In this document: one piece after another, positions 2,911 through 25,972 of the stretch | How positions within the stretch are numbered: position 1 is the first letter of the stretch | How the letters are laid out: each line of letters starts with the position of its first letter | Source of the DNA: a virus | Lineage: Duplodnaviria > Caudoviricetes | IMG/VR virus record: IMGVR_UViG_3300021400_001366 | Span: 32,001 to 96,000 of that record | DNA: 64,000 nt | Direction: 5' to 3' (one strand) | The notes under the pieces: model-generated | Told to the model about the DNA's origin: nothing | Databases searched by the model: none | What the model saw: the letters and a program-made list of their open reading frames with translations, nothing else | Program-made: the position numbers and the translations under genes

Positions 2911-3654
2911 ATCGAGAGCTACATCAAGCAAGGCGATTGCATAGAATTGATGTGCGAAATTCCCGATGGCTCTGTCGATATGATCTTGTGTGACTTGCCC
3001 TATGGTCAGACAGCGCGAAACTATTGGGATAAGATCATCCCGTTTGATGAACTTTGGGAACACTACGAGCGAGTGATTAAACCCAATGGCGCGATTGTGC
3101 TGTTTGGCCAGGGCATGTTTACCGCAGACCTAATGACGAGTAAGCGCGAACTATGGCGGTATAATCTCATTTGGCAGAAAACGCAGCCAACAGGATTTCT
3201 CAATGCCAAGCGGATGCCTATGAGAAGCCATGAGGATATATGCGTATTCTATAAGTCTTTGCCTACATATAACCCGCAAATGACCCACGGCCATACACGG
3301 AAGGTCAGCACGGCAGCACATCATGTAAACAGCAAGAAAACGATGGACTATGGCGAACACGGTTTGACTGATTATGACAGCACAGACCGTTATCCACTTT
3401 CAATTATCACGTTTTCAAAAGACACTCAGAAACACGCGCTACATCCAACGCAGAAACCCGTTGCTTTGTGCGAATACTTGATAAAGACGTATACGAATCC
3501 CGGCGACCTCGTGCTTGATAACTGCATGGGTAGCGGCAGCACGATTGTCGCGTCGATCAATACGGACAGGAAGTACATCGGTTTTGAATTGGATGATGGC
3601 TATTTTGAAGTGGCTCAACAGAGAATAGGAGAAACGCTTGGAGAGTTACATTAA
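2911..3654 (+). CDS. beta-class N4C/N6A DNA methyltransferase (probable ATC start)
   Basis: GDC, DLPY, HPTQKP and DNCMGSGST motifs. The conserved N-terminus IESYIKQGDC lies upstream of the first TTG/ATG, behind SD AGGCGGTGAT. Confidence 0.85.
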   Translation: MESYIKQGDCIELMCEIPDGSVDMILCDLPYGQTARNYWDKIIPFDELWEHYERVIKPNGAIVLFGQGMFTADLMTSKRELWRYNLIWQKTQPTGFLNAKRMPMRSHEDICVFYKSLPTYNPQMTHGHTRKVSTAAHHVNSKKTMDYGEHGLTDYDSTDRYPLSIITFSKDTQKHALHPTQKPVALCEYLIKTYTNPGDLVLDNCMGSGSTIVASINTDRKYIGFELDDGYFEVAQQRIGETLGELH

Positions 3655-4281
3655 ATGCGGCGATTGTATGCAGCTCATGGGCGAGATCGAACCCTCTATA
3701 GGGGGGGCATTGAGCTATGCGTTACGGATATTCCGTATGATGTAGTCAATCGCGATTCAAACGGTATCAGGAATTTCGACAAGGGGAAAGCCGACGAGGG
3801 TACATTCGATCTTGAGGATTTTCTGTCTGGTCTGCTTCGGGTTGTGAAGGGCAGCATTTACATATTCTGTTCAACAGAGCAGGTAAGTTGTATCCGCAAG
3901 TTTTTCGTAGATCACAAGTTATCAACTCGGCTTATCATTTGGGAAAAGACAAATCCTTCGCCTGTAAATGGTCAGCATATTTGGCTTAGTGGGGTCGAAT
4001 GCTGCGTGTATGCGCGAAAGAAGGGCGCTGTGTTTAACGGTTTCTGCGAGAATACGGTGCTGAGATTTCCATGCGGCAGGAACAGGCTGCATCCTACACA
4101 AAAACCTGAAAAGCTGATAGAGAAACTTGTTGAAATGAGTTCAAACCAGGGCGACGTAGTATTTGACCCGTGTATGGGCAGCGGCACGACATGCGTTGCA
4201 GCGAAGAACCTGGGTCGTAAATACATAGGCTTTGAACTTGACGAAAAGTATTTTGAGATAGCTAAACAAAGACTGGCTTAA
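3638..4281 (+). CDS. beta-class DNA methyltransferase, frameshifted at a G7 tract (candidate phase-variable, OFF allele)
   Basis: TTG start after AGGAG gives MESYIKCGDCMQLMGEIEPSIGG, paralogous to the upstream MTase N-terminus, and stops at 3743-3745. The DIPY/HPTQKP/DPCMGSGTT body is in another frame; G8 or G5 would fuse them. Confidence 0.8.
3701..3707 (+). repeat. G7 homopolymer at the MTase frameshift
   Basis: ATA GGGGGGG CATTGAG seen directly. Confidence 0.9.
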
Positions 4282-4315
4282 AATTGATTTTTTATATTGT
4301 ATGAGAGGTTAGCAA

Positions 4316-4973
4316 ATGCGTGTTTTAGTTGCTTGCGAAGAATCCCAGGCTGTAACAAAAGAACTGCGGAAATTGGGGCATGAAGCGTACAGTTGCGACC
4401 TCCAAGAATGTAGCGGAGGTCATCCCGAATGGCATATTCAGGGTGATGTCACATCTATTCTAGGGGGGGGGCTGTGACTTCGTGACGATGGATGGTGTGC
4501 AACATAGCATACCCGATAGATGGGATATGATTATTGCACATCCACCATGCACACACTTATGTTCGAGCGGCCAAAGATGGTTCACCGAAGGTAAAAAAGA
4601 TTACCGGCTTCAGCGCGAAGCAATAGCATTTTTCTATCAATTTGTTATGGCCGACTGTGATCGTATCGCCATTGAAAATCCGGTAGGAGTAATGAGCACA
4701 GCTTACAGAAAGCCAGATTGCATCATCAATCCATGGCAGTTTGGTGATCCAGAACAGAAGAAAACATGCCTTTGGCTTAAAGGACTTCCTCCGCTAAAAG
4801 AAACAAATAACGTCTATGATTATATGATGACACTACCGCCCAAAGAACGTGCTCGAATATGGTATTTGGGTGGTGGTCACGGCAAAGAGCGAAGTAAAAC
4901 ATATCCTGGAATTGCCCGTGCAATGGCAGAACAATGGGCTGGTGATGCAACACTAACCGACTCAAAATCTTAA
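4316..4973 (+). CDS. phage DNA cytosine methyltransferase-like protein, frameshifted at a G9 tract (candidate phase-variable, OFF allele)
   Basis: ATG 4316 after GAGG gives MRVLVACEESQ...HIQGDVTSILGGG, then TGA at 4475. The downstream frame carries IAHPPCT, IENPVG, KKTCLWL and RSKTYPG; G8 restores one ORF. Confidence 0.8.
4463..4471 (+). repeat. G9 homopolymer at the MTase frameshift
   Basis: CTA GGGGGGGGG CTGTGA seen directly. Confidence 0.9.
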
Positions 4974-23344: not shown

Positions 23345-23356
23345 GAGGCGATTCAG

Positions 23357-24296
23357 TTGAAAACACCGGACGAACTTAGAGAAATCATAGCCAACGCCAA
23401 AGAAGAAGTCAGACAATTCGACCATCATACAACCTGGGATGATGTAAAGGATATGACTACTGCCGAAGCTATCAGCGTATTATCTAGGCTTGCAAACTCA
23501 GATGGCAGAGATTGGAGCGCAAGACCGCATCTCGCAAAAGCATGTCAAATGGCTATCGAAGCACTACGGAAGGAGAAGGATAATGAAGCCGATTCCTAAT
23601 GGTTATACATATACCCGCTGCGATCAGTACACGCCAGAAGAGTTTGCAAAGCGCCATACAGATTTTCGCGGAAAGCCCAGACCAATTTGTGTTGAGTATA
23701 TGCGGGATCATCCCAAGAAAGTGTATACCACGGATGACGATATTGCGCTAATCGAAATGCTGAATGAACGTAGCGTCGGCAGTATGATACAGTTGACAGG
23801 CAAAAACACCACGAAGCGCTATAAGTATGAGGTCGTGTAGATAGCAGCGAGAATAGAACGTATGAAAGAATACTATCCTGTCTATGACAGAAAGAATGGA
23901 TTGTATTTCATCAAAGATAAGCTACCAAACAACCAGACCATTATCATGTCGTTTGAAAACTACGATAATTCGTATGACACGGATTATTGGAATATCGCGC
24001 TATGCGTTGTGAACAAGCGTAAACACATCGACCATGTTTTTGATAACTGTGAAATCACTGGTGGCGATCCTGTTGCGACGGTTCGTATTGCCAGGGATAT
24101 GTTTTCTTCACTTGAAAACCAGATTATACGAGACATAGATTTATACGGCACGAAACAACACGTTTCATGCACATGGCTTGACGCGAAACGACGGAATGTT
24201 TATGCACATTTCTTGAAGCGGCGAGGGTATCAATACGGCATGTTTGACGGTAAGAAAGTATTGTACAAGGTGTATAAAGGAAGTGATGTTGATTGA
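23357..24296 (+). other. small hypothetical CDSs (23357-23599, ~23583-23840, 23862-24296)
   Basis: packed ORFs with RBS. Confidence 0.6.
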
Positions 24297-25972
24297 TTTT
24301 AACCGAAGATCAGGCAAGTAGAATATCATCAGATGGTTTAATCCATGACGCTGAACGCCTGAAAGAACTGCAAGCTCTACCGCTAGAACGTAAGATTGGC
24401 ATTTCAACGGCAAGAATCATTGAATGGTATCAGTATTGGAATGGCAACGTTTACGTGAGTTTTTCAGGCGGCAAGGATAGTACAGTTCTGCTACATCTTG
24501 TAAGAAGCATTTTCCCGGATGTGCCAGCGGTTTTCTCAAACACAGGTCTTGAATATCCTGAATTGCAGAAATTCGTAAAATCGTTTGATAACGTCATCAC
24601 TCTCTATCCTAAGATCGGTTTCCGTGAGGTTATTTCTACATATGGTTATCCGCTAATCAGCAAGGAAGTAGCTGAAGCTATTTACTATGCACGTAGAATT
24701 AAGCCTCAAAATACCGGGGGGGGGTATTCAAGACTACAAACCGGAAACGTACAGAACTCCAGGGATTGCGAGAGGATTCAGGGAAGCAACAGCAAAACGC
24801 AAAGACCTACTCGGAATACGGGGGGGGGCATCTCGAAACGGATCGTCGAAGGAAAGACCTGCTCAACCTCCGCTCCACGACTGGCGACGAATGGTTCTGC
24901 TCGGAAGCTGCCCCCCCCAAGTACAGACTGGACTAACTGGCGACGTGCATGTCTCTGCAACGCACAAAAACAATTTGGCGAGAAGAGCATGTTCAACAAG
25001 GAGAAGTGGTTGCCGATAGCGCGTGATCTGCCAGTGCCTATTTCTCATTACTGCTGCAATATAATGAAGAAACAGGTCATGAACAAATACGCGCATGAGA
25101 CTGGTCGTAAACCTATTATTGGAACCATGACCGAAGAAAGTCGAATGAGAAAGCAAGCGTGGATTCGTCATGGCTGCAATGCATTTGATAGCAAGAAAGC
25201 GTCCAGTCAACCGCTGAGTTTCTGGACTGAACAGGATGTTCTCACTTATATCAAGTTGTTTGAATTAGAAATCGCGCCAGTGTATGGCGACATCAACATT
25301 GTAGATAGTAAAGGCAATATCGTCGAAACCGACGAAGCTGGTATGCCTGAAGGTTGCAAGTGGGCTTGCAGTAAGTGTACAAGAACAGGTTGGTAATACA
25401 GCCGTGTGTAGTGGCGACATTACATATAATAATAGTGTGAACCCTATTGCTCAGGGGTGTGGCGAAAGCTGCTAACGGTGAAGCCCTTCACGGGGTAATA
25501 CCGTGCCGTTGATAATGCTTAAATTTATTGACGCTAAACAAGCAAATGTCAAATATATTTTACATTATTTGCGGTGTAACGACTATGGTGGTTGCACCAG
25601 TAGGACAGATGATGAGCTACTGTCCGAAGCGCACTACATCTCACTGAGATGAAGAGATAGTCTGGGCTTGTGGAAACACAAGAATAACCGTGTATATACT
25701 GCGGTTTCGGCGCTCACTTAGAGAAAGGCGAAACAAGGTTCCAGCGTCTTGCGAAAACTCATCCACGACAGTATGAGTATTGCATTGGCGGTGGTCAATG
25801 GGTAGATAATCCTGCTTATGATCCTACTGCCAGCATGGAGCCTGATGAAATGGGCTGGGTAAACTACAATCCGAAAAAGATATTCGTGCCTAGCAAAGAT
25901 GGCATTGGCCTGGGTACGGTATTCAAGATGGCTAACGAAGTCATGGGTTACGAATTGTACAGATGGGAGTAG
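24293..25972 (+). CDS. PAPS-reductase-family (PP-loop, Fe-S) protein, probable DNA-modification enzyme; join(24293..25390,25691..25972)
   Basis: SFSGGKDS PP-loop, GYPLISKE, CC, and a RTG|CIYCGFG motif restored by removing the intron. Confidence 0.88.
24716..24918 (+). repeat. three homopolymer tracts (G9 24716-24724, G9 24820-24828, C8 24911-24918) bounding two segments open in all three frames
   Basis: manual translation of the three frames. Confidence 0.9.
25391..25690 (+). mobile_element. group I intron, ORF-less (300 nt)
   Basis: P1 GGU|UG with CAGCC gives a U-G pair at the 5' site; core AACGACUA and AAGAGAUAGUCU; terminal G; removal restores RTGC. Confidence 0.9.

Follow-up and report, generated by a model that had tools for sequence, protein, structure and literature searches.

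The question raised by the stretch of phage DNA described here is why a genome that is nearly devoid of long runs of G or C should carry seven of them, and why six of these should lie in genes of the DNA-modification type. The stretch, referred to below as the window, comprises 64,000 nucleotides, bases 32001-96000 of a single 137,609-base virus record (IMG/VR record IMGVR_UViG_3300021400_001366; Caudoviricetes) that comes from rumen, is classed as linear in IMG/VR, and has a CheckV completeness estimate of 89%. The genes concerned are three methyltransferase genes and one gene of the 3'-phosphoadenosine-5'-phosphosulfate (PAPS) reductase family, called here the PAPS-like gene, and our assessment is that the tracts are very probably contingency loci, that is, selected slippery repeats that switch modification genes and whose benefit may be bet-hedging.

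A regular-expression census returned exactly seven G/C runs of at least 6 bases in the window, the same seven that the sequence-only reading had listed by eye as its only long ones, and these are also the sole runs of at least 6 across the whole contig. Their raw count is unremarkable under a model of independent, identically distributed bases, which expects ~5.7 runs of at least 7 in the contig. It is the remainder of the spectrum that departs from such a model, as run lengths in the contig are bimodal, with six G5 and three C5, none of 6, and then the tracts of 7 to 10; a run length of exactly 5 is seen 9 times where ~90 would be expected, and a length of exactly 6 never, where ~20 would be. 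The genome is otherwise strongly purged of G/C runs, and from its own run-extension rates fewer than 0.6 runs of at least 7 would be expected (an analytic estimate), such that tracts of 7-10 bases, against a maximum of 5 elsewhere in 137.6 kb, exceed the background in the manner of contingency loci. The least used glycine codon in the genome is GGG (8%) and the least used proline codon is CCC (14%), and therefore three successive GGG codons represent a choice at the nucleotide level and not at the level of the amino acid. The longest A/T run in the contig is only 7. Other simple repeats observed are (GT)7 at contig bases 28440-28453, which is 3560 bases before the window, and (GCC)5 at window positions 61910-61924, in the late region.

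The tracts hit the third, fourth, and fifth of the window's six methyltransferases, and three more are found in the PAPS_reduct gene (24293-25396), in every coding case within the 5' part of the gene (Table 1). The six methyltransferases and the PAPS-like gene together represent ~4.5% of the contig, and the probability that six of seven tracts would fall within that fraction is ~5e-8, or ~2e-5 if counted by loci (four of five). The sequence-only reading had placed six of the seven runs in DNA-modification-type genes, namely three of six methyltransferases and the PAPS-reductase-like gene, and had proposed a homopolymer census against gene function as a check; Pfam and PHROG annotation and the tract positions bear out this concentration. 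The first and second N6_N4 methyltransferases (2947-3654 and 3655-4281) score 108 and 112 bits with the Pfam N6_N4_Mtase model, for which the cut-off is 26.7, and these scores together with the DLPY and DIPY motifs place both among the beta-class N6/N4 DNA methyltransferases. The Dam/EcoRI-like methyltransferase (22832-23344; Dam-like below) has weak Pfam matches to EcoRI_methylase and Dam, its paralogue (27986-28546) has no Pfam match, and the phrog_757 gene has no match in Pfam or NCBIfam.

Reading frames guided by orthologues indicate the state of each methyltransferase as sequenced. In the case of the second N6_N4 methyltransferase, the native start is a TTG at 3638 that overlaps the 3' end of the upstream methyltransferase, and the native N-terminal frame stops after 35 codons; the catalytic frame begins at an ATG (3655) immediately past the stop codon of the upstream gene and has 17 foreign residues at its N-terminus. 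A single frame encodes both the N-terminal helix and the DIPY block in 25 orthologues (46-67% identity), and in the window the helix is in the frame of TTG 3638 with the catalytic part one base off. Judged by these orthologues, G7 at 3701 is an OFF length for the native protein, and G8 (or G5/G11) would join both parts. The phrog_757 gene consists, as sequenced, of a 53-codon head and a 163-codon tail, and a read-through made by skipping one base aligns with phrog_757 without a break from residue 1 to 211 (E-value 9e-65) and is colinear with intact homologues in two other contigs (L059 and L083), in which a three-residue loop replaces GGG. The G9 tract at 4463 is accordingly, from this comparison, an OFF length, with G8 predicted to give a GGG loop of homologue length and to be ON. 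The Dam-like methyltransferase reads uninterrupted through its C8 tract at 22917 and is ON. The tract is therefore the exact point at which two of the methyltransferases lose frame, and the third stays in frame, as had been noticed from the sequence, and the alternative genetic codes that were tried gave no gain specific to any single stop codon. For these three methyltransferases and for the PAPS-like gene, a change of tract length produces a frameshift and makes the difference between a full-length and a truncated product.

The tracts of the PAPS-like gene occupy positions that are repetitive throughout its family. Tract 1 of the window lies 39 bases past a conserved AIYYAR block, which is the family-wide repeat site: 44 of 46 relatives on viral contigs have a simple repeat 25-47 bases after this block, either (GA)5-15, polyG, or (CAGA)4, and most relatives on metagenome contigs also have a repeat there, with polyC, (AC)n, and one A8 added to the types. 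Many relatives have a second repeat, polyG or (AC)n, ~90-260 bases past the block. Among more than 100 relatives, drawn from many independent assemblies of human gut and rumen, nearly all have a repeat at the AIYYAR-block site, which is kept at 40-75% protein identity despite turnover of the repeat type. When the frame of an N-terminal anchor was compared with that of a C-terminal FNKEKW anchor, 18 genes were ON and 23 OFF in the viral contigs plus the window, and 16 were ON and 29 OFF in the metagenome contigs, a set that overlaps the viral-contig set in part; about 40% of the PAPS-like relatives are in frame, and all three frames occur.

Close relatives provide a more direct view of the length changes. 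When phages 97.9-99.6% identical over 6 kb are aligned in pairs, only one or two gaps appear, and the two members differ in the length of the PAPS-like repeat, which is 18 bases in one member and 24 in the other of the pair L033/L034, 14 bases (OFF) and 16 bases (ON) in L015/L036, and ON in one and OFF in the other in both L007/L025 and L002/L021. A 94% identical fragment of the closest relative of this phage (L214) starts just past tract 2 and has C10 at tract 3, where the window has C8. Two Clostridia metagenome-assembled genomes also carry relatives of the PAPS-like gene, which is a lead to the host and only that.

The Dam-like methyltransferase behaves similarly. Homologues at 37-41% identity have a tract at the same alignment position as the C8 at 22917, which is C7 in L006 and L008 (ON), C6 in L014 (OFF), C8 in L039 (OFF), and G10 in L045 (ON), and the sequences flanking this tract are almost identical in L008 and L014. 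Closer orthologues, at 71-74% identity and from other phage groups, have tracts at different codons, and one of these is G8 and in frame in L290 and L292 and G9 and out of frame, with an immediate stop, in five contigs (L295-L298 and L302) that are 93-97% identical to L290/L292. The NPPY methyltransferase next downstream in those phages has a G7 or G10 tract of its own and is out of frame in both contigs translated (L290 and L297). A radical-SAM gene (phrog_9298; L045:1915-2958) that stands beside the Dam-like methyltransferase has an in-frame C9 tract.

Length polymorphism with conserved flanks is thus found between close relatives in the PAPS-like and Dam-like genes, a comparison that extends to these two genes and does not cover the tracts at 3701, 4463, and 21853. 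The proposal of the sequence-only reading that these are repeat-driven switches in DNA-modification genes draws its support from tract sites that recur at 37-75% identity, from the presence of both ON and OFF lengths, and from near-identical phages that differ mainly at the repeat.

In the PAPS-like gene the repeats also bracket a segment of unusual character. The stretch between repeats, 52-288 bases long, is stop-free in all three forward frames in 22 of 36 distinct relatives that have at least two repeats, where composition-preserving shuffles would give 0.37, and linker stop triplets number 26 against 172 expected; of 219 control windows from the same genes, one was open in all three frames. 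The linker sequences are related and the trials are not independent, yet they span several repeat types and 40-75% identity. A conserved basic motif, RKRxELxGxR, is frequently found in more than one frame of the linker. The window's own combination of G9, G9, and C8 leaves both anchors in frame and gives a full-length product, but with both segments (24725-24910) read in frames that lack the motif, and in L214 the C10 allele puts the C-terminal domain in frame with the motif as read in the segment before it. From this, the canonical ON combination of the window gene would be G10 (or G7), G9, and C10 (or C7), and the device would have at least three kinds of output, which are canonical, full length with a different insertion, and truncated. 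The PAPS-like gene is in this respect more than a simple ON/OFF switch. We advance only tentatively, as a possibility we would not bet on, that it is a combinatorial frame cassette, in which two or three repeats bracket the linker and combinations of tract lengths yield full-length enzymes with different inserted peptides.

Table 1. Positions in the window of the G/C tracts, the methyltransferase genes, and the parts of the PAPS-like gene.
Feature	Coordinates	Strand	Annotation or location
Large NPPF methyltransferase	31..1740	+	MTS + DUF4942; no tract (comparison gene)
First N6_N4 methyltransferase	2947..3654	+	Pfam PF01555; phrog_67; DLPY motif; no tract (comparison gene)
Second N6_N4 methyltransferase	3638..4281	+	Pfam PF01555; phrog_67; DIPY motif
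G7 tract	3701..3707	+	Codon 22 of second N6_N4 methyltransferase
phrog_757 small methyltransferase	4316..4973	+	Cytosine-C5-like gene of the sequence-only reading
G9 tract	4463..4471	+	Codon 50 of phrog_757 methyltransferase
G10 tract	21853..21862	+	Intergenic, between Thg1-like gene and 169-codon open reading frame
Dam/EcoRI-like N6-adenine methyltransferase	22832..23344	+	NPPY motif; phrog_799, E-value 5e-31
C8 tract	22917..22924	+	Codons 29-31 (Ala-Pro-Pro-Ala) of Dam-like methyltransferase
PAPS-like gene, exon 1	24293..25381	+	Pfam PF01507 in two stretches; phrog_424
G9 tract 1	24716..24724	+	Codon 142 of PAPS-like gene
G9 tract 2	24820..24828	+	PAPS-like gene
C8 tract 3	24911..24918	+	PAPS-like gene
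Group I intron	25382..25683	+	Rfam RF00028, 33.5 bits, E-value 7e-7, whole model
PAPS-like gene, exon 2	25688..25972	+	Second half of four-cysteine motif and conserved C-terminus
Paralogue of Dam-like methyltransferase	27986..28546	+	NPPF; phrog_799, E-value 1e-49; no tract (comparison gene)

The three tracts of the PAPS-like gene all lie within a variable insertion that splits the catalytic fold. The protein belongs to a very large family, with 7,998 of 8,000 scored candidates at an E-value of at most 1e-10, the 120 best listed being 365 to 496 residues long. In an AlphaFold model of a homologue, residues 1-117 and 200-418 are confidently predicted, and the repeat-bearing linker (118-199) has predicted local distance difference test (pLDDT) values of 36-54. 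A Foldseek search found CysH, with template modeling (TM) scores of 0.56-0.64 on the target, and adenosine-5'-phosphosulfate (APS) reductases as best matches and also grouped the fold with CysD, and a PDB sequence search with a relative of the protein found no match. The protein differs from the assimilatory PAPS/APS reductase CysH in that an insertion of ~80 residues splits the fold and a four-cysteine domain follows, and its NCBIfam scores are 21-46 bits, where the cut-offs are 154-254. Similarity to the defense proteins BrxP (E-value 2e-12), SspD (4e-5), and DndC (0.009) is limited to local matches of 50-70 residues over the PP-loop, which does not place the protein in any of these families, and no dnd, ssp, or brx partner gene was found among the open reading frames (ORFs) scanned, which were annotated to a limited extent and without a dedicated search. 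It shares with DndC, SspD, and BrxP the PAPS-reductase-type PP-loop fold, the SGGKDS loop, and methyltransferase-rich neighborhoods, and differs in the C-terminal four-cysteine domain and the repeat-bearing insertion, which are particular to this phage family. The group I intron splits the gene inside the four-cysteine motif, and the 94% identical relative L214 lacks window bases 25381-25689 and so represents an intron-less allele. Upstream of the PAPS-like gene, an in-frame TAG at 23841-23843, followed by an ATG 18 bases on, parts two ORFs of the same frame (23490-23840 and 23862-24296), and a 96% identical relative (L275) has ~290 extra bases exactly at this junction.

The association of tracts with modification genes extends beyond the window. 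In 848 kb of loci surrounding the PAPS-like gene of relatives there are 33 G/C runs of at least 7, of which the PAPS-like gene holds 15, C5 methyltransferases 11, Dam-like methyltransferases 4, a radical-SAM gene 1, and ORFs without assignment 2. By contrast, six loci account for all of the 11 runs present in 1.13 Mb of loci from unrelated phages, and several of these runs also lie within a methyltransferase gene or next to one. In one unrelated 36-kb contig (L119:2438-8690), polyG tracts are found in two D12-class methyltransferases, a G11 tract falls at the N-terminus of an N6_N4 methyltransferase, and the contig's PAPS-like gene has both (CAGA)n and a G7, and therefore the habit is not confined to one lineage. 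In another contig (L022:8173-9996), five G8 tracts are packed into 750 bases of the variable middle of a C5 methyltransferase that directly precedes the PAPS-like gene; this middle does not align and so does not permit phasing by homology. A further contig has a G7 and a C9 tract 13 bases apart just upstream of an N6_N4 methyltransferase (L143:2885-2913), which may pair as a hairpin, in which case they could be structural and not act as a coding switch. Relatives of the first N6_N4 methyltransferase, found in many unrelated phages, show no tract signal above the background rate. A megablast search of window bases 1-25000 against GenBank phages found no match, and exact-protein look-ups, which are blind to alleles of other tract length, yielded identical alleles, either on the scaffold itself or on tiny contigs.

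The mechanism that we propose is slipped-strand mispairing, in which the polymerase would slip on the repeat during replication, with gain or loss of repeat units. The slip would shift the frame early in the gene, at codons 22, 50, and 29 of the three methyltransferases and within codons 142-207 of the PAPS-like gene, and whether a given enzyme is produced would vary from one progeny phage to the next, reversibly and with no dependence on the other enzymes, making a phage burst a mixture of modification states. The state captured in the window would be one in which the second N6_N4 methyltransferase and the phrog_757 gene are OFF, with G8 turning either one ON, the Dam-like methyltransferase is ON, and the PAPS-like protein is full length with non-canonical linker frames. 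Switching would presumably occur at a high rate within one population, and the enzymes would be expected to modify the DNA of the phage, or that of the lysogen. The benefit may be bet-hedging between hosts whose nucleases attack unmodified DNA and hosts whose nucleases attack modified DNA; the pay-off put forward in the sequence-only reading was that the ON state would evade restriction enzymes and the OFF state modification-dependent (type IV) nucleases. Overall, the interpretation offered in the sequence-only reading is partly supported, strongly as regards the mechanism, and we infer its ecological rationale and the role given to the PAPS-like enzyme.

Homopolymers of 9-10 bases are error-prone, a one-base miscall would change each of the ON/OFF calls, and the L214 contig breaks exactly at tract 2, all of which could suggest that the tracts or the frameshifts are homopolymer miscalls arising in sequencing or assembly. 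Such an explanation is extremely improbable given that the tracts stand at conserved codon positions in many independent assemblies, that the ON/OFF spread is no different for (GA)n repeats of 10-30 bases, a kind that short reads resolve well, and that no homopolymer frameshifts are found in other genes of the contig, with reading frames clean on either side of each tract. The intact and conserved condition of the gene parts on both sides of the repeat also bears on a neutral explanation, in which accidental hot spots arise in dispensable accessory genes that are becoming pseudogenes, with no selected switching. It could be said in favor of decay that the PAPS-like gene is out of frame in over half of the relatives, that orphan methyltransferases are often dispensable, and that the L022 C5 methyltransferase with its five G8 runs appears scrambled; on the other side, the repeat site persists at 40-75% identity even as its repeat type swaps between polyG, polyC, GA, AC, and CAGA, the genome elsewhere avoids G/C runs, and the segment between repeats is kept open in three frames far beyond expectation, and we regard decay as improbable.

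Long homopolymers can cause transcriptional slippage, which is established for A/T runs, and it could be that the tract is stable in the DNA and that RNA polymerase slippage, or ribosomal frameshifting, gives a constant mixture of products, in which case out-of-frame alleles could still provide some full-length enzyme. However, near-identical genomes already differ in the length of the tract in their DNA, and it is not established that G/C runs or (GA)n cause efficient slippage, which makes recoding of a fixed sequence very improbable. A different matter is whether the same switch serves another end, whereby the lysogen benefits through phasevarion-like host expression or through variable exclusion of, or self-protection from, other mobile DNA. 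The phage is probably temperate: it encodes, at window 48160-50303 and at contig bases 22139 and 111225, a large serine recombinase (a 604-codon open frame) and three tyrosine recombinases, which suggests a temperate lifestyle or invertible segments. A prophage Dam-like methyltransferase, PamA, has been reported to alter host phenotype (PMC13076061), and bacterial phasevarions act in this way. The methyltransferases of this phage, however, are located among early, replication, and nucleotide-metabolism genes and not with the recombinases, and we consider a lysogen pay-off rather unlikely, though a credible alternative; it is compatible with escape from restriction and does not exclude it.

Several observations weigh against switching by contingency loci as the explanation, or against parts of it. 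A second assembly of the same sample, probably built from the same reads, is identical and gives no evidence of heterogeneity within the population. The G9-G10 consensus of short-read assemblies may be off by one, which makes the ON/OFF calls less sure than the existence of the tracts. None of the 25 orthologues of the second N6_N4 methyltransferase has a tract at the 3701 site, which leaves this gene without comparative support, and its ATG at 3655 may yield an N-terminally substituted methyltransferase, so that its OFF state could be leaky. A DNA-modification role for the PAPS-like enzyme is suggested by family resemblance and by its constant methyltransferase company. Around the G10 tract neither a sigma-70-like promoter nor a terminator was found, and no effect of its length can be predicted.

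This G10 tract occupies a 19-base gap between the TAA of the Thg1-like gene (21040-21852) and the ATG at 21872 of the 169-codon ORF. It follows directly after the TAA and ends nine bases before the ATG, where the ribosome-binding site would be, and a change in its length leaves the distance to the ATG unchanged. The 169-codon ORF has no Pfam, PHROG, or PADLOC family and no relatives in the viral contigs, and there is a weak atlas lead (0.90) to WapI-like immunity proteins. The Thg1-like gene is one of several RNA-repair-type genes (at 13465-17453, 21040-21852, and 28580-29557), the set consisting of an RlaP nucleotidyltransferase, an RNA ligase with an intein and a LAGLIDADG endonuclease, the Thg1-like tRNA-His guanylyltransferase, and an AAA_33/KTI12 kinase-HD fusion, which looks like a tRNA-repair toolkit.

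Slippery tracts are known from other systems, with which the present case can be compared. Hypermutable polyG tracts in receptor-binding and tail genes of Campylobacter phages, which alter host recognition, were reportedly described by Sorensen et al. in 2021; they resemble the present tracts in that polyG in phage genes would generate phenotypic subpopulations, but none of the structural genes of this phage has a tract. Phase-variable Mod proteins of type III systems and HsdM/HsdS of type I systems occur in Haemophilus, Neisseria, Helicobacter, Moraxella, and Streptococcus suis (for example PMC5909438, PMC7383803). The likeness to these phasevarions is that a simple repeat in a methyltransferase ORF slips, the enzyme is ON or OFF, and sibling methylomes differ. 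Unlike them, the enzymes here are phage-borne orphans of the N6_N4, phrog_757, and Dam/EcoRI-like kinds, with several independent switches per 138-kb genome, and a PP-loop enzyme is switched too. The three methyltransferases belong to the families N6_N4_Mtase, phrog_757, and phrog_799 and are not type I or type III components, and no res or hsdS partner was found among the neighboring ORFs scanned, in which annotation was limited and no specific search was made.

The nearest parallel, an experimental one, is the agt gene of phage T2, in which an A9 repeat undergoes reversible frameshifts, the OFF state escaping TgvAB and the ON state escaping McrA/BC, and reversion is ~1000-fold more frequent than for a point mutation (Gomez, Barrick and Waters, bioRxiv 10.1101/2025.10.21.683753). 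The same preprint on T2 and T4 describes contingency loci as previously undescribed in phages and finds repeats of at least 6 in all gene classes (bioRxiv 10.1101/2025.10.21.683753). Both cases involve a homopolymer in a phage DNA-modification gene, and the T2 trade-off is that which the sequence-only reading had proposed; they differ in that T2 is AT-rich with 168 runs of at least 6 over all gene classes, whereas here the G/C runs are the sole ones in the genome, concentrated in modification genes, conserved in position among distant relatives, and replaceable by repeats of two or four nucleotides. A 2026 review of prokaryotic methyltransferases covers phase-variable bacterial enzymes and the prophage enzyme PamA and includes no repeat-switched phage enzyme (PMC13076061). 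Our literature searches turned up no description of phage methyltransferases, or of a phage gene of the PAPS-reductase family, as targets of polyG/C or dinucleotide repeats, which is not proof of absence.

Phase-variable methyltransferases are textbook knowledge for bacterial pathogens, and for phages the existence of contingency loci is a very recent proposal, made on the basis of laboratory coliphages. The phage described here represents a natural and strongly targeted version, in which the sole slippery G/C tracts of the genome lie in DNA-marking enzymes; the same sites of the PAPS-like gene are slippery in more than 100 gut and rumen phages that have not been cultured, and polyG is present within or next to methyltransferases in no fewer than three further groups of phages. 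The linker of the PAPS-like gene that is open in three frames is a rare and testable case of selection on all three reading frames of one stretch. If the frame cassette is real, the inserted peptides might alter target choice or visibility to host defense, and together with the switchable methyltransferases they would constitute a programmed, combinatorially variable epigenome across a large group of gut and rumen Clostridia phages. If switching is confirmed, gut phage methylomes would be heterogeneous by design rather than a fixed property of the phage, which would bear on how phages cross restriction barriers and avoid modification-dependent defenses, on the assignment of hosts in metagenomes by matching of methylation motifs, and on the choice and stability of therapeutic phages.

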